Shown: piece after piece, positions 348 through 7,571 of the stretch | Position numbering within the stretch: the stretch's first letter is position 1 | How the letters are laid out: every line of letters begins with the position of its first letter | Sequence record: PZ534511.1 | DNA length: 64,000 nucleotides | Strand: one strand, 5' to 3' | Source: a phage | Notes under the pieces: generated by a model | Databases searched by the model: none | What the model was told of the DNA's origin: nothing | Seen by the model: the letters and a program-made list of their open reading frames with translations, nothing else | Translations under genes and position numbers: made by a program

Positions 348-728
348 TTAATCGTAGTGTGCCAAAATCTCTCCATCGTTGCAAGTTCCCTCTACAAAGT
401 TATGAAGATTCATGCACTCATCTTGATAGAAGAATTTACCGCTTTTCAGCCGTAGGCCAAACAACTCCGCATCTCCACGATGGCAAGCCTCTACAAGTTC
501 ATAGATTTCATACGGCAACTCTCCGTCGTCATGGAAGAATCCAGCCTTATCGTTGACATAAATGAAGAAATAATCACTGCTATCGCAAGCGTCCAATATT
601 TTAAACCAGACTTCATCTACATCTTTTTCTCGGATATCGATCACGCAAGTGGAGCTGCATTCGTACTCCTTCTCCGGCTCCTCGGTCAATACCACCAGGT
701 AGTTTCCCCGCTTACCTACTTTAGCCAT
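348..728 (-). CDS. Hypothetical protein
   Basis: Track ORF 348..776; start moved to internal ATG (MAKVGKRGNY) preceded by G-rich RBS, removing overlap with ATPase gene. Confidence 0.5.
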   Translation of the reverse strand: MAKVGKRGNYLVVLTEEPEKEYECSSTCVIDIREKDVDEVWFKILDACDSSDYFFIYVNDKAGFFHDDGELPYEIYELVEACHRGDAELFGLRLKSGKFFYQDECMNLHNFVEGTCNDGEILAHYD

Positions 729-738
729 ACAACCCCCC

Positions 739-1923
739 TTAAGCTTTAGCCAAAATGGCGCTAAACTCTTCACCAAACTCTTTTACAATCTTCATCAGGT
801 TTGGGTATGCTTTGATCAGCTGAGCAACAATCTTGTCACGCCCTTTACCGATAAGCAAGGCATTTCCTAAGGCATTAGGTTTCATCATCGCCATAAAGAC
901 TGAGAATACAAAATCTCGGTTCTCGTCCTTGAAGTTTTCCCAAAGGAAATCGAGGAAGTTTGCCACGCAGCTGACAAGATCTTCGTCTGAGATACTTGCA
1001 TTTTCCATCATATTGCGAATAGCGATACAACCTTCAGATCCAAGAATCCACAAAATGTCTGGCTGCTTAGGACCTACGTATTCTTTGCAGCCACCTGCCA
1101 TAATCCGACCGATTTCCGGTAAATTACGTTTCTTGGTGTGGTAAGTCCAGATCTCTACCGCTGCAGTGTGACCAATAGCACCTTGTAGAAGAACACGGGC
1201 CATAGCGTCAGAAATAATACCGCTGTCAAAATCGTGCAAGATGTCAGATGCAGCAACCCAAGATCGTGGTGTGGCAAAAGATGGACAATTAATCTCAGCC
1301 ATAGCCTCATAATTATCAATAGCTGATGGAACTCTTTTCAGATACCCAATTACAGAGGAGTGAACCCCGTTGAGGAATGCGTAGTCCTCAATAAACACCT
1401 CTGCATTGCTTGTAACCTCTACAATGATAAAACGGTTAGCCAGAGGGGCTTCGAGCGCCGAAAGAACCGCACCATCTGTAGAACGGTTACCCGCAGCCAC
1501 AAAAACAGAACCTTTAGGGAATGCATAGGTGCCGCACTTGTGGTCAAGCATAATTTGCATTGCAACCTTTTGCAGGTAGTTATCTGCATGAGTGAGCTCA
1601 TCCAGAAAGATAATTCCGCTCCAGTCAGGATCCGCAGGCCAAAATTCTGGAATTGCAAACACTGTACGTGTAGTTCCATCCGCTTCTACAGGGATAGGTA
1701 GCCCAGATAAGTCGGCAGGATCTTTATCTGACAGTCGCACGTCAACAAGGTTGTCATCTCGCTCACCGAACATATTATCAGCGATCTGCTTCATCACCTG
1801 GCTTTTACCCACACCCATTGGTCCCAAAATTAGGACAGATCGGCTATGACGTTGGGCAAACTGAATAATAGCTGGCAACTCACGGACAGTGATTTGACCA
1901 CTTTCGAATACGTTTCTTGACAT
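739..1923 (-). CDS. AAA+ ATPase, MoxR/CbbQ-like (AAA_5 type)
   Basis: Walker A GPMGVGKS, Walker B IIFLDEL, VFVAAGNRS sensor region; 394 aa. Confidence 0.8.
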   Translation of the reverse strand: MSRNVFESGQITVRELPAIIQFAQRHSRSVLILGPMGVGKSQVMKQIADNMFGERDDNLVDVRLSDKDPADLSGLPIPVEADGTTRTVFAIPEFWPADPDWSGIIFLDELTHADNYLQKVAMQIMLDHKCGTYAFPKGSVFVAAGNRSTDGAVLSALEAPLANRFIIVEVTSNAEVFIEDYAFLNGVHSSVIGYLKRVPSAIDNYEAMAEINCPSFATPRSWVAASDILHDFDSGIISDAMARVLLQGAIGHTAAVEIWTYHTKKRNLPEIGRIMAGGCKEYVGPKQPDILWILGSEGCIAIRNMMENASISDEDLVSCVANFLDFLWENFKDENRDFVFSVFMAMMKPNALGNALLIGKGRDKIVAQLIKAYPNLMKIVKEFGEEFSAILAKA

Positions 1924-2192
1924 TAGTAAAAGTCCTCTACTTGTGTGTAAGTGTTTTCAAAGTTTTCCAAAACAGATATCACATCGAATCTGTCAATATC
2001 ATACGTGACTCTCCAGTTGTACGCAACCCTTTCTGCTGTTGCCTCTTCTGGCGCTAGTCGTCTGCTGGCATAAAAGAGTGTTGGAGTACACTTTCTTGCT
2101 TGCCCTCTAACTTTCCCATAATAATATCTGTGAATATCTTTGTCAAAATTTAACTCTTTTTCTGCACGAAGTTCATATTGCTGGTATAACAT
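1923..2192 (-). CDS. Hypothetical protein
   Basis: Track ORF in tightly packed minus-strand operon; no recognisable motif. Confidence 0.5.
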   Translation of the reverse strand: MLYQQYELRAEKELNFDKDIHRYYYGKVRGQARKCTPTLFYASRRLAPEEATAERVAYNWRVTYDIDRFDVISVLENFENTYTQVEDFY

Positions 2193-2236
2193 CTCTACTA
2201 CTCCTTAAGCAGCATCCTTGCCGCCATTCCTGCCCA

Positions 2237-2617
2237 CTAAAATGCAGTCCGAATCCAGACAAGGTTCTTATCTGCCCAATCATAGAGGCAAGTCATTGCA
2301 CTATTGAATTGCTCACACGGAGGATAATCTTCTTCCATCTGGCGCATAGCAGAGCCTTGTGGGTAAAGCTCCCGTGCTGCAAACCACGCGTCGTAGTCAT
2401 CAACGGTGTCGAAGTAGTATACAACATCCTCTAACTCAGGATCGAACTTTGAACTATCAGGATCCAGTTGTTCAGGGAACTTGGAGCGTAACTTGCCAGC
2501 CACAATACTTGCCAACTCGCTAACATGCTTATTGTCCCACTCCACTAGCTTCCCGTCTTCAGTGATGCGTCCTAACCACTGATCATGAAGGTCAACTGTT
2601 GTCTTCCACTGAGCCAT
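2237..2617 (-). CDS. Hypothetical protein
   Basis: Track ORF, same operon; acidic; no motif recognised. Confidence 0.5.
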   Translation of the reverse strand: MAQWKTTVDLHDQWLGRITEDGKLVEWDNKHVSELASIVAGKLRSKFPEQLDPDSSKFDPELEDVVYYFDTVDDYDAWFAARELYPQGSAMRQMEEDYPPCEQFNSAMTCLYDWADKNLVWIRTAF

Positions 2618-2619
2618 TA

Positions 2620-2877
2620 TCAGTCCACCTCTTCTTCTCGTTGTAGTTCAAGATACCCGTAGGTCTGGACATCTTGAAGGGTGTGGAACTCCCCCTCTGC
2701 CGCTAAGGCACGAACAACTTGGCACAAAACCTTATGAGGAACTTCATCCAAACCTAGATTCAGTGCAGGAAACACCTTATCTAAGTCAACAAAATAAACG
2801 AACTGTAGCTCACCAGCTTCAAAAGGTGTATCTTCAATAAACATCTTCTCGGCATTAGTCAAGATCTGCACTTTCAT
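2620..2877 (-). CDS. Hypothetical protein
   Basis: Track ORF; start/stop abuts neighbours. Confidence 0.5.
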   Translation of the reverse strand: MKVQILTNAEKMFIEDTPFEAGELQFVYFVDLDKVFPALNLGLDEVPHKVLCQVVRALAAEGEFHTLQDVQTYGYLELQREEEVD

Positions 2878-3233
2878 TATTCTACCTCCTCTTCTTTTTC
2901 TTCGGCATTAGTTTCATGGCTACCCCACTCGGGAGTTTCCACCTCGATAGTAAACTCACGCACTACACGGTAATTGCCCATGAAGCGCTCTACTTCGTCA
3001 AGGCTTATGGAGAGGCCATTGGCAACCAGGTCTGCAGCACCCTCTTCTACCAGGTAGTCCAGATTGGCTTCCAGAGCCTTAGGTTCAAACCCTGTCAATG
3101 CAATCAGATAACCTTCCCCTTCATCAGGGAGGACAATACAGCCCAATTGATTTTCTTTAAAAAGGCAGTGACCATCATTATTGATTGGGTGTTCATTGCA
3201 GTAAATAGCTGCACGATAAGTAACTTTAGACAT
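2877..3233 (-). CDS. Hypothetical protein
   Basis: Track ORF 2877..3254 (TTG); likelier start is ATG at 3233 (MSKVTYRA...) 9 nt after AAGGAG; this start region is one copy of a 29-bp inverted repeat. Confidence 0.5.
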   Translation of the reverse strand: MSKVTYRAAIYCNEHPINNDGHCLFKENQLGCIVLPDEGEGYLIALTGFEPKALEANLDYLVEEGAADLVANGLSISLDEVERFMGNYRVVREFTIEVETPEWGSHETNAEEKEEEVE

Positions 3234-3238
3234 CGGTA
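3210..3238 (-). repeat. 29-bp perfect inverted repeat, copy A (TACCGATGTCTAAAGTTACTTATCGTGCA on minus strand)
   Basis: Covers ATG and first 7 codons (MSKVTYRA) of gene 2877..3233; identical to 5072..5100 on plus strand. Confidence 0.85.
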
Positions 3239-3246
3239 AGGTCTCC

Positions 3247-3525
3247 TTAGGCAATTGTCATTTTACATTCTTGAAATTTTAACACAAGACGGTGATTGTG
3301 TCTAGTGTCTAAAAAGATTTTTTCAACCATCAGGCACACGGTATAACCGTCCATCTTGTTGACAACAAAATCTCCAGGATGAGGGAGGATGTCTCCCGGA
3401 TTGGGGAAACATAGTCCACTCAGAAAGGCATCGTCAGTGGTGGACTTAATAGATTTCCACACACTGTCTGCCTGAACATGTTCACCGACGTAATATACAT
3501 TACCACATGCCTTCATCATAGTCAA
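3247..3525 (-). CDS. Hypothetical protein
   Basis: Track ORF; 4-nt overlap with upstream gene. Confidence 0.45.
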   Translation of the reverse strand: MTMMKACGNVYYVGEHVQADSVWKSIKSTTDDAFLSGLCFPNPGDILPHPGDFVVNKMDGYTVCLMVEKIFLDTRHNHRLVLKFQECKMTIA

Positions 3526-4421
3526 ACCCTCGCATAAATTAAACTTGTATCAGTATACTTCTTTAATGGGTAAATATCCTGTCCATAGATGCAATCATTA
3601 AACACCTCATCTACCCAAAGGCTACACTTATATCCCATCATTTCTAAAACACCCATCTCTTCTTCGGTAAACTTATCACCGCTCTTGCAAGATGTCAATA
3701 CCTCATTCTGAACTCTTGCTACCTCGAAGCGGTTATTGGCAATATCGCTATTGGCGATCAAATACTCACCTAGAGGGTGTGCGGCATTAAAGATGCACAG
3801 CGGACGGCTGACGTAATAGTCTCCAGGTGTATAAAAATTGTTGAGGTCTTTCACTAGAACATTCTTATCAGTCACTTCATTTATAACATCATGCATATCG
3901 CACATCTTTATATGTTTGAGGATTCCATCCCCCATCACAAAATAAAAACTTGCTGAGACACTTTCGGCATAGATCTTACTAGATCCGTTGTAGTTGTATT
4001 TTACTCGGATGCTAACGGGGGTTTTTCCTGTCGCGTTAGCCATCATCCAAAGAAATGGCAGCTCATACTTCTCCTCTGAGGAAACAAAAGGTGAGGTAGC
4101 CAGAGATCGAAAACCTCCAGAGAAGTTGAAAGTTACAGAACCGCTCCGGCGGTATGATACCGCGTATTCTACTTTTATATCGACATACCCATTGGAATAG
4201 GTGTGTCCTTCATTATCTAAATATGTCCACTTATCAGACCCAGATACCAATCTACGCTCAATAACCTTCATCACTATAGGAATTAATGGGTTGGTACAAA
4301 CCGCTTTTGAAGTAGCTTTATCATCTAAAGCCTCGTAAATTGCAGAAAGGATGTCCCCAGCTGAAAGATTGGTTGTTATGTCCTGTTTCCACCGCGTACT
4401 AAAACTGTTAAGATTTGCCAT
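3522..4421 (-). CDS. Hypothetical protein
   Basis: Track ORF, 299 aa, first gene of minus-strand operon. Confidence 0.5.
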   Translation of the reverse strand: MANLNSFSTRWKQDITTNLSAGDILSAIYEALDDKATSKAVCTNPLIPIVMKVIERRLVSGSDKWTYLDNEGHTYSNGYVDIKVEYAVSYRRSGSVTFNFSGGFRSLATSPFVSSEEKYELPFLWMMANATGKTPVSIRVKYNYNGSSKIYAESVSASFYFVMGDGILKHIKMCDMHDVINEVTDKNVLVKDLNNFYTPGDYYVSRPLCIFNAAHPLGEYLIANSDIANNRFEVARVQNEVLTSCKSGDKFTEEEMGVLEMMGYKCSLWVDEVFNDCIYGQDIYPLKKYTDTSLIYARV

Positions 4422-4503
4422 AAGTAAGTGCTCCTATGTTAGTTTTCTTTCGAATGGGTGCACTATATTGTGGAGTTAGAGTAAAGTCAACACGTTTTTG
4501 ATG

Positions 4504-4532
4504 TTGACATCTGTTGAGACAATTGATACGAT
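4504..4532 (+). promoter_or_regulatory. Sigma70-like promoter (TTGACA-17-TACGAT)
   Basis: In divergent intergenic region; would place TSS about 25 nt upstream of ATG 4564. Confidence 0.4.
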
Positions 4533-4563
4533 TTCTTCACTTACAGAGCACGAGAGACGACTC

Positions 4564-5541
4564 ATGAATCTTGAAAAATATTATACACCAGAAGAGTTAG
4601 AGCGCTTGCTCAAAAAATATAGACGCAAACAGAATAACGCACGGAAACGAGATATAGAGTTCGACCTGTCATGGGAAGAATACCTCCTATTTGGTAAAAA
4701 ACTTTTAGGAGATGGAGTATGCGACTATACCCTTATACCTTTTGACATGCACACAGATGAAAACGGGCTGGGGAATCCTTTCTACCCATCTCTGGAGCGG
4801 ATAGATGATGAAGGTCCTTATGCGGCTGATAACTGTTGTGTGGTGGGATTGAGATGCAACTCTCTAAAGGACTGTCTGGTAGATAAAAAGACTGCAGTCT
4901 TGATTAAAGACGAAACTGATCGAAAAATTGTCCAGCAGATGATGCTCCACCTGAGCGAAGAGCGTATGGAGAAATTGAAAGGTGATTATACTTTTGAAGA
5001 TTTCATCTTGCAATATGGAACGGAAGAGGATAAACTAGCACTCTTTGACGAAGAAGAGGAGGAAGATATGCTACCGATGTCTAAAGTTACTTATCGTGCA
5101 CCCAAGAAGCACATTTCCGACATTGTAAACGAGCCTATCACAGAAGAGATTGAAGAAATGACGCAACAGGTGCATGAAGAGGAAAAAGAGACTCAGGAGG
5201 TCGAAGAGGAGCTTACAGAAGAGGTTCCTGCACTACCTGATGATGTTGAGATTGCCAAAGCTTACACTTTCTATTGTCAAACGTTCTACGATGTAGGTAT
5301 GAAAGTTGATCTGTCATTCAGCCAATTTAAGAGTTCGTATATTCGCAAATGCTGTGCTTTAACTGGTGAACGTCTTGGAGCTGGACTTAAACCCCTGTTG
5401 GTGACCGACTGGAATAAAGGTTTCACTAAAGGAAACTTTATGGTAGTATCTCCAATTATGGAGAAAGCTATGACAGATCTTATGAAGACCACCCGCATGA
5501 CAATGACCGAGTTGGCAGGTATTTTCAAACACGTTAAATAA
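4564..5541 (+). CDS. Hypothetical acidic protein
   Basis: Track ORF 4498..5541; start placed at ATG 4564 downstream of promoter-like element; Glu-rich centre; internal in-frame ATG at 5077 lies in second copy of the 29-bp repeat. Confidence 0.5.
   Translation: MNLEKYYTPEELERLLKKYRRKQNNARKRDIEFDLSWEEYLLFGKKLLGDGVCDYTLIPFDMHTDENGLGNPFYPSLERIDDEGPYAADNCCVVGLRCNSLKDCLVDKKTAVLIKDETDRKIVQQMMLHLSEERMEKLKGDYTFEDFILQYGTEEDKLALFDEEEEEDMLPMSKVTYRAPKKHISDIVNEPITEEIEEMTQQVHEEEKETQEVEEELTEEVPALPDDVEIAKAYTFYCQTFYDVGMKVDLSFSQFKSSYIRKCCALTGERLGAGLKPLLVTDWNKGFTKGNFMVVSPIMEKAMTDLMKTTRMTMTELAGIFKHVK
5072..5100 (+). repeat. 29-bp perfect inverted repeat, copy B
   Basis: Inside ORF 4564..5541 in frame (LPMSKVTYRA), preceded by GAGGAGG; flanking bases differ. 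Confidence 0.85.
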
Positions 5542-5546
5542 TGACA

Positions 5547-5572
5547 GGGGCCAATGGCCCCTTCTGGAGTTT
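5547..5572 (+). terminator. Terminator-like hairpin (weak)
   Basis: GGGGCC-aat-GGCCCC after stop of 4564..5541; short T-run. Confidence 0.3.
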
Positions 5573-5574
5573 TA

Positions 5575-7035
5575 ATGGATAGCAGAAGTTCAGAAATCAT
5601 TGCCTCGCAGAAAGATGATGCCCTGAGAATGTTGCAGGCTGCACGTATGTATCTCCTTGAAAAGCTGCCGTTTTATGGCACACTACTGTCAGGGTTGCAG
5701 TTCGTAGAAAACCACACATGGTGCTCCACCATGGCAACCGACCATAAACGCATCTACTACAGCCCTGAGTTCATTATGGGGTTGGCGGATGAGCGTAAAA
5801 CCATTCTTAAAGCATCTCTGACTGACAAGCAGTTTGAGATGGCTGAGGTTTTCTATTCCCCAAAATCTGTGAAAGAGGTGGCCTTTCTTCTGTCACATGA
5901 GGTGGGGCATATTATCTGTGATCATCTGGTCCGTGGTAAAAGCTTTGAGCCGGAACTGTTCAATATTGCTTGTGATCACGTTATCAACACAGGTCTTGTG
6001 GTTGACTTTAGCAAGCCTCCTTGTGTTTTCTTCCCGAAGGGGAAAAGCACTGAGTTCGTAAAAGGTAAGCCTTTTGGCTTCTTAGCTAATTGCTACTGCG
6101 ACATGAGGTTTCATGGATGGATTGCTGAGAACGTCTATGCAGTTCTTGATAAACAAAGAGATCAGAATGGCGGTAAAAGTAAGAACGGTAAAGGTGAGAA
6201 CTCCCAAGGAGATAAACGACAAACCGATGATCACATGAGCGGGAACGGTGGCACTAGTGATGATCTTGGAAAGGCTATGGGGTATGATCAGCCGCAACCA
6301 GTAATCAGTCAATCTGACAAAGATCAGGCCATGCAGGACTCTGGTGACATGTTGGAAGCAGCAATGCAAGCTTCAGGAGGTCGTTGCCCCGAGGCGGTGC
6401 GCGAGTTTGTCAAAAACAGAGGCAAGCCTGTAATCAATTATATAGATATTATTAAGCAACGTATGTTATCTAAAAGAAAGGCTGAGTTAACCTACAGAAA
6501 ACCTGGTCGCCGATCTGGGTCTTTGACCACCACAATGCGAAAAGTTGGAGCTATAAACAAGAATCAACACGTTATTGTTCCTGGTCGTAATCCGGAAAAC
6601 ACTATAGATATTGTAGTGGCTTTAGACGTTTCTGGGTCGATCTCACAAAGAACTTTAAAGAAAATGTTCAATGAGATCACCGGGTTGTGCAATTTGTATA
6701 AAGAGTTTAAGGTTACTATGTTCTGTTGGTCAACGGAGGTTGGAGAGGTTAAAGTATACACTCGCGGTAACATCGATGAGATGATTAACTATGAGGTCCA
6801 CTCAACATGGGGCACAACAGCCGCCTGCGTGTTCGAGTATCTGGATGCTAACATACCGAATGCAAAAGATGTCATCGTCCTTACCGACCTCTACTTTGAG
6901 CATAACTTTGAACAAAAGGCTGTTGACAACAAGTGGAAAAAGTACGATACTTTATGGGTTCTCACCGAAGGGTATAATAAAAATTATATCCCGAGCTTTG
7001 GGAAAACTGTGGAATTAATCGAGTACGCTAAGTAA
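5575..7035 (+). CDS. VWA-domain protein with N-terminal HExxH metallopeptidase-like motif
   Basis: HEVGHIICDH near residue 115; MIDAS-like VVALDVSGSIS near residue 350; start moved to ATG 5575 after GGAG (track start 5554 sits in a hairpin). Confidence 0.7.
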   Translation: MDSRSSEIIASQKDDALRMLQAARMYLLEKLPFYGTLLSGLQFVENHTWCSTMATDHKRIYYSPEFIMGLADERKTILKASLTDKQFEMAEVFYSPKSVKEVAFLLSHEVGHIICDHLVRGKSFEPELFNIACDHVINTGLVVDFSKPPCVFFPKGKSTEFVKGKPFGFLANCYCDMRFHGWIAENVYAVLDKQRDQNGGKSKNGKGENSQGDKRQTDDHMSGNGGTSDDLGKAMGYDQPQPVISQSDKDQAMQDSGDMLEAAMQASGGRCPEAVREFVKNRGKPVINYIDIIKQRMLSKRKAELTYRKPGRRSGSLTTTMRKVGAINKNQHVIVPGRNPENTIDIVVALDVSGSISQRTLKKMFNEITGLCNLYKEFKVTMFCWSTEVGEVKVYTRGNIDEMINYEVHSTWGTTAACVFEYLDANIPNAKDVIVLTDLYFEHNFEQKAVDNKWKKYDTLWVLTEGYNKNYIPSFGKTVELIEYAK

Positions 7036-7050
7036 GAGAGGATGGTATTT

Positions 7051-7308
7051 ATGGCAACAGAGGTAGTAATTAAAGCTGAACGCCCAGTTAAAAAAGCTAT
7101 CAACACGTTCCCTGTAGGAACCATTGTGAGCATGATTACAGAGTCAGGCCGTGTATCTACACTGCTAATCGTGAAATCTGCATGCTCATCTTGTGTGTGG
7201 GCATACGATCTTGACGAGAAAGAACTGAAAGATTTTGTTGGGGAGCTGAAAGCAACAGAGCTTGACGCTCGTATCGAAGTATTTGGTGAAACTATGAAGG
7301 AAGAGTAA
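7051..7308 (+). CDS. Hypothetical protein
   Basis: Track ORF 7042..7308; second ATG has better RBS spacing. Confidence 0.45.
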   Translation: MATEVVIKAERPVKKAINTFPVGTIVSMITESGRVSTLLIVKSACSSCVWAYDLDEKELKDFVGELKATELDARIEVFGETMKEE

Positions 7309-7571
7309 TGACTACAAAAATCACTATTGCAGAACCAAAAGCTAACACGCAACCTATCGAAAAGTTTAAATGCGGTGAGGTGGTAACATTCACACCGGAT
7401 AATGAAGATGCTAAGATTTTTGCCATGGTCACAGCCGAGTGGATGTGTGACAATACCACACAGGTGCTGCGTTTTGACACCTATCTTACAGATGAAATCA
7501 GGAACGACAAGATTGTGACTGGTGTGGATACTGAGATTATTTTCTACAAGAGCTTTTTAGAGGGTTTCTGA
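7308..7571 (+). CDS. Hypothetical protein
   Basis: Track ORF; start overlaps upstream stop. Confidence 0.45.
   Translation: MTTKITIAEPKANTQPIEKFKCGEVVTFTPDNEDAKIFAMVTAEWMCDNTTQVLRFDTYLTDEIRNDKIVTGVDTEIIFYKSFLEGF

Follow-up and report, generated by a model that had tools for sequence, protein, structure and literature searches.

A divergently arranged MoxR-like ATPase and DUF2201 protein of a Vequintavirus are, by homology, the counterparts of coliphage N4 gp24 and gp25

The genes for an AAA ATPase (gp24) and a vWFA protein (gp25, pfam13203) of coliphage N4 belong to the conserved gene set of N4-like phages, with function unknown (PMC2784036, PMC6992544). They have been listed as conserved since 2009, when their function entry read 'Unknown' (PMC2784036), and MoxR-type two-subunit pairs in phages had already been reported in 2007 (PMC2147016). 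Here we examine a related pair between positions 739 and 7,035 of a phage DNA stretch of 64,000 nucleotides (sequence record PZ534511.1; hereafter the window, numbered from its first letter), comprising an AAA+ ATPase gene on the minus strand and, on the plus strand, a gene for a DUF2201-family protein in which an HExxH motif is combined with a VWA domain bearing a metal ion-dependent adhesion site (MIDAS). Judged by homology, the pair is the Vequintavirus version of N4 gp24/gp25 and is thus already known. The first-pass annotation of the window had proposed a candidate uncharacterised module, and only part of that description survives: the pair is not new, being catalogued as N4 gp24/gp25 and as Pfam DUF2201_N/DUF2201, labelled in GenBank, annotated in near-identical genomes and noted in N4-like phages since 2009. 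The accompanying caution that function cannot be told from sequence still holds.

Better characterised MoxR–VWA couples provide a frame for comparison. The NorQD structures of 2026 illustrate a general mode: the VWA domain is docked in the ATPase ring and touches the helix-2 inserts with a finger, while the linker that leads to the client-holding N-terminal domain is stretched by a rotation that ATP drives (PMC13036017). NorQ is the best structural match of the window ATPase, in which the helix-2 insert is conserved, and the NorD VWA domain is among the matches of its partner, which shares with NorD the layout of N-terminal domain, linker and C-terminal VWA domain. However, NorD has an N-terminal domain that lacks HExxH and is no zincin, its long pore-inserting finger is not evident in the compact ~145-residue VWA domain of the DUF2201 protein, the cNOR client is absent from the window context, and identity is only ~15–19%. 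CbbQ–CbbO and Midasin/Rea1 likewise combine a MoxR-class ring with a MIDAS-VWA domain by which an acidic client residue is captured, but they carry no peptidase domain, and their clients, Rubisco and pre-60S factors, are irrelevant here. A bacterial AAA_5/DUF2201 operon ('predicted metal-dependent peptidase') shares both domains and the invariant residues with the phage pair; it differs in its chromosomal location, in Gamma- and Betaproteobacteria that oxidise sulfur and iron, with housekeeping-looking surroundings that include thioredoxin and ferrochelatase. When the bacterial neighbours were clustered, noise from antisense open reading frames (ORFs) in GC-rich DNA kept any conserved third gene from being named.

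Homology to the N4 pair was found for both window proteins. In tblastn searches, the DUF2201 protein matched 682 of 50,697 phage records from at least three major lineages, including N4 gp25 itself (2e-10, 84% of the query), Schitoviridae proteins named 'N4 gp25-like' and 121Q/GAP32-type jumbo phages, while N4 gp24 aligned with the ATPase profile in hhalign at 99.9% probability (E = 1e-34). Approximately 15,000 family clusters (50% identity) match at E ≤ 1e-30. The window and N4 pairs have the same Walker, HExxHxxxxH and MIDAS residues, and each is located away from structural genes, close to rIIA and to genes of nucleotide metabolism. They differ in arrangement, gp24 and gp25 being adjacent and co-directional whereas the window genes are divergent and 3.6 kb apart; in sequence (20–27% identity); and in length, as the Vequintavirus proteins are longer (394 versus 352 and 486 versus 380 amino acids (aa)), their C-terminal helical region being larger and their low-complexity linker more extended. 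An rIIA gene is found only a few kb from the pair both in N4 (gp33; locus L042, 6212–17171) and in Vequintavirus (ORF1; locus L001, phage FFH2 1–12680), two otherwise unrelated genome architectures, which may be coincidence or a remnant of early-region synteny.

The two genes and their conserved elements are located as follows, with residue conservation counted over 57 (ATPase) and 58 (DUF2201) unique diverged sequences at 20–30% identity, the DUF2201 set including N4 and bacterial copies at 20–25%:

739–1923, minus strand: predicted MoxR-class AAA+ ATPase, 394 aa; ortholog of N4 gp24.
1801–1824, minus strand: Walker A P-loop GPMGVGKS (aa 34–41); G37 and K40 in 56/57 sequences (a gap in the other), position 41 S or T in 57/57.
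1624–1743, minus strand: helix-2-insert region (aa 61–100), the most conserved block of the family.
1597–1602, minus strand: Walker B D108-E109; D in 57/57, E in 55/57.
5575–7035, plus strand: DUF2201 protein, 486 aa, with a putative N-terminal zincin domain, flexible linker and C-terminal VWA/MIDAS domain; ortholog of N4 gp25.
5896–5925, plus strand: HExxHxxxxH motif, the putative zinc site, comprising H108, E109, H112 and H117 (HEVGH = aa 108–112).
6508–6513, plus strand: basic dipeptide R312-R313, R or K at both positions in 56–57 of 58 sequences, in a loop before the VWA domain with a predicted local distance difference test (pLDDT) score of 55–67.
6592–7032, plus strand: VWA domain (aa ~340–486) with MIDAS residues D351xS353xS355, T414 and D438 (DxSxS...T...D).

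The first-pass claim of an ATPase–VWA pair was examined by co-occurrence across relatives, and it held in phages and bacteria alike. Among homologs of the DUF2201 protein in IMG/VR, an ATPase matching the family hidden Markov model lies within 10 kb in 37 of 39 viral loci; in the reverse test, 36 of 37 loci found through an ATPase homolog have a DUF2201 gene no more than 10 kb away, giving reciprocal co-occurrence in 73/76. The exceptions are one locus that is cut off upstream (L040) and a single contig counted twice (L010 and L053). Bacterial genomes place the ATPase gene upstream on the same strand in 69 of 71 assessable loci, 66 of them directly adjacent. The order of ATPase then DUF2201, adjacent and co-directional, is found in every lineage outside the Vequintavirus-like clade, including N4 (gp24/gp25), uncultured large phages and, within the same subfamily, Certrevirus CR8 (CR8_116/117). 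This N4-type order is not found in the window, where the two genes are on divergent strands with 3.6 kb between them. Because the genes are adjacent and co-directional elsewhere, Certrevirus included, the divergent split is a derived rearrangement of an ancestral two-gene operon. The near-obligate co-occurrence in phages and bacteria indicates that the ATPase and the DUF2201 protein form a functional pair.

The contig counted twice (IMGVR_UViG_3300045988_163358) is the only phage contig in which the pair is more than 10 kb apart. Both genes are present, ~99 kb apart as assembled or ~36 kb apart if the 136-kb genome is circularly permuted, and ORF11, the upstream neighbour of the DUF2201 gene in the window, is retained in that position. 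A candidate natural in-frame fusion of the two genes in a Nitrosomonadales metagenome-assembled genome (L101:4948–7248) was rejected as an artefact, the junction being a masked run of 10 N's.

Neighbours of the pair in 25 diverse phage loci outside Vequintavirinae include ThyX, helicases, a 5′-3′ exonuclease, PolA/PolB, PD-(D/E)XK nucleases, RNA ligase and phosphoesterases. The 25 commonest neighbour families of these loci contained no structural family, and no family recurred in more than three of the 146 neighbours. The replication-type neighbours and the lack of a recurrent third family suggest a self-contained module that moves together with the block of replication and nucleotide-metabolism genes.

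The assignment of the ATPase draws on several sources. Direct comparison gave a strong match to PHROG 1297 'ATPase' (2e-110); in Pfam, AAA_5 (PF07728; 16.7 bits, cut-off 22) and bpMoxR (15.1 bits, cut-off 27) stayed below threshold with P-loop-centred matches, AAA_3 (PF07726) was not listed, and NCBIfam, PADLOC and PDB sequences gave P-loop-level matches only. An AAA_3 or AAA_5 identity above gathering score is hence reached only transitively, through homologs and profile. Since the direct searches of Pfam, NCBIfam, PADLOC and PDB sequences returned matches at the P-loop level only, family placement required a homolog profile and a structure model. The homolog search produced a phage clade at 35–99% identity, followed at E ~1e-44 by proteins bearing Pfam AAA_3/AAA_5/bpMoxR, and a 39-sequence family profile matched the AAA (AAA_5) modules of Midasin at 4e-9. 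The AlphaFold2 (AF2) model (pLDDT 86.6) had NorQ (9.5e-9) and CbbQ2 (3.9e-8) as its best Foldseek matches, with the MoxR protein CHU_0153 at rank 21 (2.5e-6), and it contains both hairpins of the MoxR-class fold: (i) the helix-2-insert β-hairpin (E75-81/E84-90, between β2 and β3), and (ii) the pre-sensor-1 hairpin, formed by short strands at 129–134 ahead of β4. The AAA+ core of the class (Walker A/B, sensor 1, arginine finger and sensor 2) is present with key residues in 55–57 of 57 sequences; sensor-1 N146, R164 and R220 each occur in all 57, and D61, R63, L64, D71, G74, A90, P92, P96 and P99 are invariant in the helix-2-insert block. Genetic linkage to a VWA/MIDAS partner, a further attribute of the class, was described above. 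The homolog Pfam content, the Midasin profile matches and the NorQ/CbbQ2 structural matches agree with the original label of a MoxR/CbbQ-like ATPase, and we accept the protein as a divergent MoxR-class member on profile and predicted-structure grounds. No CobS/CobT or RavA/ViaA model of Pfam or NCBIfam was listed at E ≤ 0.1.

The partner is assigned directly. Pfam DUF2201_N ('putative metallopeptidase domain') matches at 2.3e-28 (100 bits, cut-off 23.2) and DUF2201 ('VWA-like domain') at 3.6e-11 (43.7 bits, cut-off 26.4), which places both domains (PF13203 and PF09967) above gathering score in the correct N-to-C order and bears out the earlier description of a 486-aa protein with an HExxH motif and a MIDAS-type VWA domain. 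HExxH and MIDAS residues are invariant throughout the 39-sequence family alignment. In the wider set, H108, H112, H117 and D134 occur in 58/58 sequences and E109 in 57/58 (the exception being E109Q), and the MIDAS is complete (D351, S353, S355, T414 and D438) in 57, with a gap in the remaining one. Such near-frozen catalytic and MIDAS residues at 20–30% identity argue for retained enzymatic function. The family profile gave weak matches to minigluzincin MJ1213 (0.011) and to the M48 proteins BepA/HtpX (~0.1; 0.14 at most), in each case at the HExxH helix. The AF2 model (pLDDT 81.2) consists of a helical N-terminal domain, a disordered linker followed by a helical segment, and a compact VWA domain in which the MIDAS motif sits on a Rossmann-like fold; the low-complexity disordered linker spans aa 201–228, and the NorD VWA and Rea1 MIDAS domains are both among the structural matches. 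The N-terminal domain is a probable zinc peptidase (zincin), to judge from family membership and motif. For the basic dipeptide R312-R313, we infer a possible role as a pore-engaging element or cleavage site. Various records label the DUF2201 protein 'HNH endonuclease' (PHROG 1314), 'DNA repair ATPase' or 'anti-sigma factor', labels for which we found no support.

From the observed family identity, linkage, motif conservation and genomic context, we consider it fairly probable that the pair is an ATP-driven MoxR–VWA remodeller, with zinc-dependent cleavage or processing of a MIDAS-captured client as its output in early or middle infection. By analogy with NorQ–NorD, CbbQ–CbbO and Midasin, the ATPase would assemble into a hexameric ring with the VWA domain docked to it, an acidic residue of the client protein would be captured by the MIDAS ion, and ATP hydrolysis would twist or stretch the linker between the VWA and N-terminal domains. 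With a probable zinc peptidase as N-terminal domain, the output would most likely be ATP-gated cleavage or processing of the client. The module would probably be transcribed early from host-type promoters, and its neighbourhood with replication and nucleotide-metabolism genes across lineages suggests that the client is probably a host or phage protein of that phase. Tentatively, the DUF2201-type pair might even constitute a separate type of ATP-gated protease assembled 'in trans', in which a MoxR ring employs a MIDAS-VWA adaptor to capture one specific client and pass it to the fused zincin, and which virulent phages (N4-like, rV5-like and jumbo) would use early for the processing or destruction of a key replication-phase protein of host or phage. 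To our knowledge, proteolysis has been shown as the output of a MoxR–VWA couple in no characterised system.

Instead of cleaving a client, the pair could act as a metal-insertion or maturation chaperone that loads metal into, or activates, a specific metalloenzyme, such as a nucleotide-metabolism enzyme of phage or host, with HExxHxxxxH serving to hold the metal. The models for such a role are NorQD (Fe into cNOR), the chelatases CobST and BchID, and CoxDE, and most characterised MoxR–VWA pairs do work in this manner (PMC13036017, PMC7159879); the position of NorQ and CbbQ as the best structural matches of the ATPase, the nucleotide-metabolism enzymes beside the pair in phages, and the placement of the module between thioredoxin and ferrochelatase in Sulfurivermis-type bacteria all point the same way. 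We nevertheless regard this role as unlikely, because the general-base Glu, kept in 57/58 sequences, would be superfluous for mere metal binding, the profiles matched in Pfam and PDB belong to peptidase families (M48, minigluzincin), and no one candidate client enzyme recurs beside the pair.

Still more doubtful is a part in biological conflict, whether as a counter-defence or host-takeover protease directed at a host immunity or housekeeping protein, or in superinfection exclusion akin to the ternary MoxR–vWA systems (Kaur et al. 2020). MoxR–vWA couples form the core of described bacterial conflict systems, in which metallopeptidase effectors are sometimes fused to the vWA protein (PMC7159879), the window pair lies in an accessory-rich early region near rIIA, and a weak match of the ATPase to bpMoxR exists. 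However, the effector is C-terminal to vWA in those systems whereas the zincin is N-terminal in the DUF2201 protein, and the bpMoxR match is below its cut-off. Among the neighbours, neither a Pfam match to a third component (VMAP, iSTAND, FtsH or beta-propeller) nor a conserved third gene was found, and PADLOC returned P-loop-level matches only (E ≥ 0.0028) for the ten proteins examined, so that the defence or counter-defence role raised in the first-pass annotation gains no positive support. Moreover, entire phage families keep the pair, as do bacterial chromosomes (52–70% identity, surroundings of housekeeping appearance), a pattern unlike that of patchy conflict genes. That two unrelated genes merely happen to lie near each other is hardly credible: opposite strands, a 3.6-kb separation, different promoters and a distance of tens of kb in one contig would fit, but the viral (73/76) and bacterial (69/71) co-occurrence, together with adjacency outside the split clade, effectively refutes it.

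For the favoured reading of an ATP-driven, zinc-dependent remodeller, work on the client would test MoxR–VWA-driven proteolysis against metal insertion. The module is very common, occurring in hundreds of phages and many proteobacterial chromosomes with essentially frozen active sites; once its client is identified, thousands of genes would gain an annotation together. N4 and the Vequintavirinae of the BASEL collection are genetically tractable E. coli phages for such work. Literature searches on DUF2201, Vequintavirus with MoxR, Schitoviridae with vWFA, and N4 gp25 essentiality retrieved no functional study; the genome-wide CRISPRi-ART screen does not cover the pair, only rII having been targeted in N4, and a phage Tn-seq preprint mentions none of these genes. 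Phage SUSP1 of the CRISPRi-ART work is presumably a FelixO1-like phage and not a Vequintavirus.

The 7-kb region around the pair is that of a Vequintavirus (rV5-like E. coli phage), with 98.5% identity to Escherichia phage JeffSchatz and 95–98% identity to more than 100 further genomes of the genus. Its counterpart in phage FFH2 is ORF4–ORF12, where the ATPase gene is labelled 'MoxR ATPase' and the DUF2201 gene 'hypothetical protein'; BASEL-collection phages label the latter 'putative metallopeptidase'. The ATPase gene, the six minus-strand ORFs and the gene for the 486-aa protein were all located where the first-pass annotation had put them, and the surrounding features are:

348–728, minus-strand unit: ORF3, downstream of the ATPase gene.
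1923–4421, minus strand: six ORFs (ORF5–ORF10), positioned as first annotated.
1923–2192, minus strand: ORF5, 89 aa, its stop overlapping the ATPase start (TAATG); a genus-level accessory gene conserved only in loci L003–L008.
2118–2146, minus strand: sigma70-like promoter TTGACA-17-TATTAT (11/12), inside ORF5 and ~195 nt upstream of the ATPase start.
4462–4532, both strands: back-to-back sigma70-like promoters in the ORF10/ORF11 intergenic region, with palindrome 4486–4508 common to both.
4564–5541, plus strand: ORF11 (PHROG 3118), labelled 'anti-sigma factor' or 'HNH'; a clade-specific upstream neighbour of the DUF2201 gene, not part of the core.

The ATPase gene does not end the minus-strand operon, as had been thought: ORF3 follows it, and the only strong terminator-like hairpin of the unit lies past ORF3, at 319–334. 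Of the candidate promoters, the site equivalent to 2118–2146 carries a promoter annotation in phage ECML-10, and the intergenic region combines a plus-strand site, TTGACA-17-TACGAT with TG (10/12), and a minus-strand site, TTGACT-17-TATAGT (10/12). All are consensus matches, of which the total of 24 is no excess over the 18.1 ± 4.1 found in shuffled sequence, and expression timing is thus given above as probable only. The arms of the palindrome at 4486–4508 (GTCAACACGTTTTTGATGTTGAC) form the -35 boxes of the two divergent promoter-like sites, and this element could be a shared operator for both units. At the start of the DUF2201 gene, GenBank relatives use the ATG at 5554, which falls within a GC hairpin; because a GGAG Shine-Dalgarno sequence stands 6 nt upstream of the ATG at 5575, the latter, chosen in the first-pass annotation, is the better start. 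The hairpin corresponds to a perfect GC-rich palindrome at 5546–5562 (AGGGGCCAATGGCCCCT), which lies past the stop of ORF11 (5541) but ahead of the DUF2201 start and encloses the ATG at 5554; attenuation or processing between the two genes is a possible role for it.

Only the ATPase and DUF2201 genes are kept across all relatives. ORF5, 7, 8, 9 and 10 are restricted to Vequintavirus and its nearest genus, with a somewhat wider range for ORF6; on this distribution, the six minus-strand ORFs are genus-level cargo outside the module, and the suggestion that these co-operonic genes form part of it fails, as they do not accompany the pair across relatives. ORF11 is directly upstream of the DUF2201 gene in all loci with the split arrangement (at 37–39% identity in the more distant ones) and is not present in the Certrevirus-like, N4 and other loci compared. 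An internal domain duplication in ORF11, suspected by eye, was dismissed (BLASTP E = 1.9). Two labels in this region also lack support: 'putative alpha 1-3 fucosyltransferase' for ORF10 (3522–4421), which has no Pfam or NCBIfam match, and 'ATPase' for the 89-aa ORF5 (PHROG 13164), a propagated annotation.

A perfect 29-nt inverted repeat (3210–3238 / 5072–5100; 0 expected by chance) corresponds to the duplicated start region once taken to tie the pair together. The duplication is real, but it connects ORF8 and ORF11, not the ATPase and VWA genes: the start of ORF8 (LPMSKVTYRA), proximal to its ribosome-binding site, recurs as a copy within the acidic linker that ORF11 encodes. Of 13 loci checked, none but the window and FFH2 have this ORF11 copy, which there takes the place of a portion of the variable acidic linker; other Vequintaviruses retain only the ORF8 copy, and ECML-10 and two IMG/VR Vequintaviruses have 'MSPMQDFKNFMADRA...' at the ORF11 position instead. 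The ORF11 copy looks like a recent, lineage-specific patch of micro gene conversion (small recombination). A link between the members of the pair was discarded on the same evidence, as was an inversion site, since all of the 30 best records listed align as a single collinear piece.

Finally, 16 GenBank records of the MG0656xx series titled 'Campylobacter phage' (host C. jejuni) match window positions 500–7500. Nine of them, among the matches listed, are unannotated and 95–97% identical over the full 7 kb. These records likely represent mislabelled hosts or contaminating coliphages.

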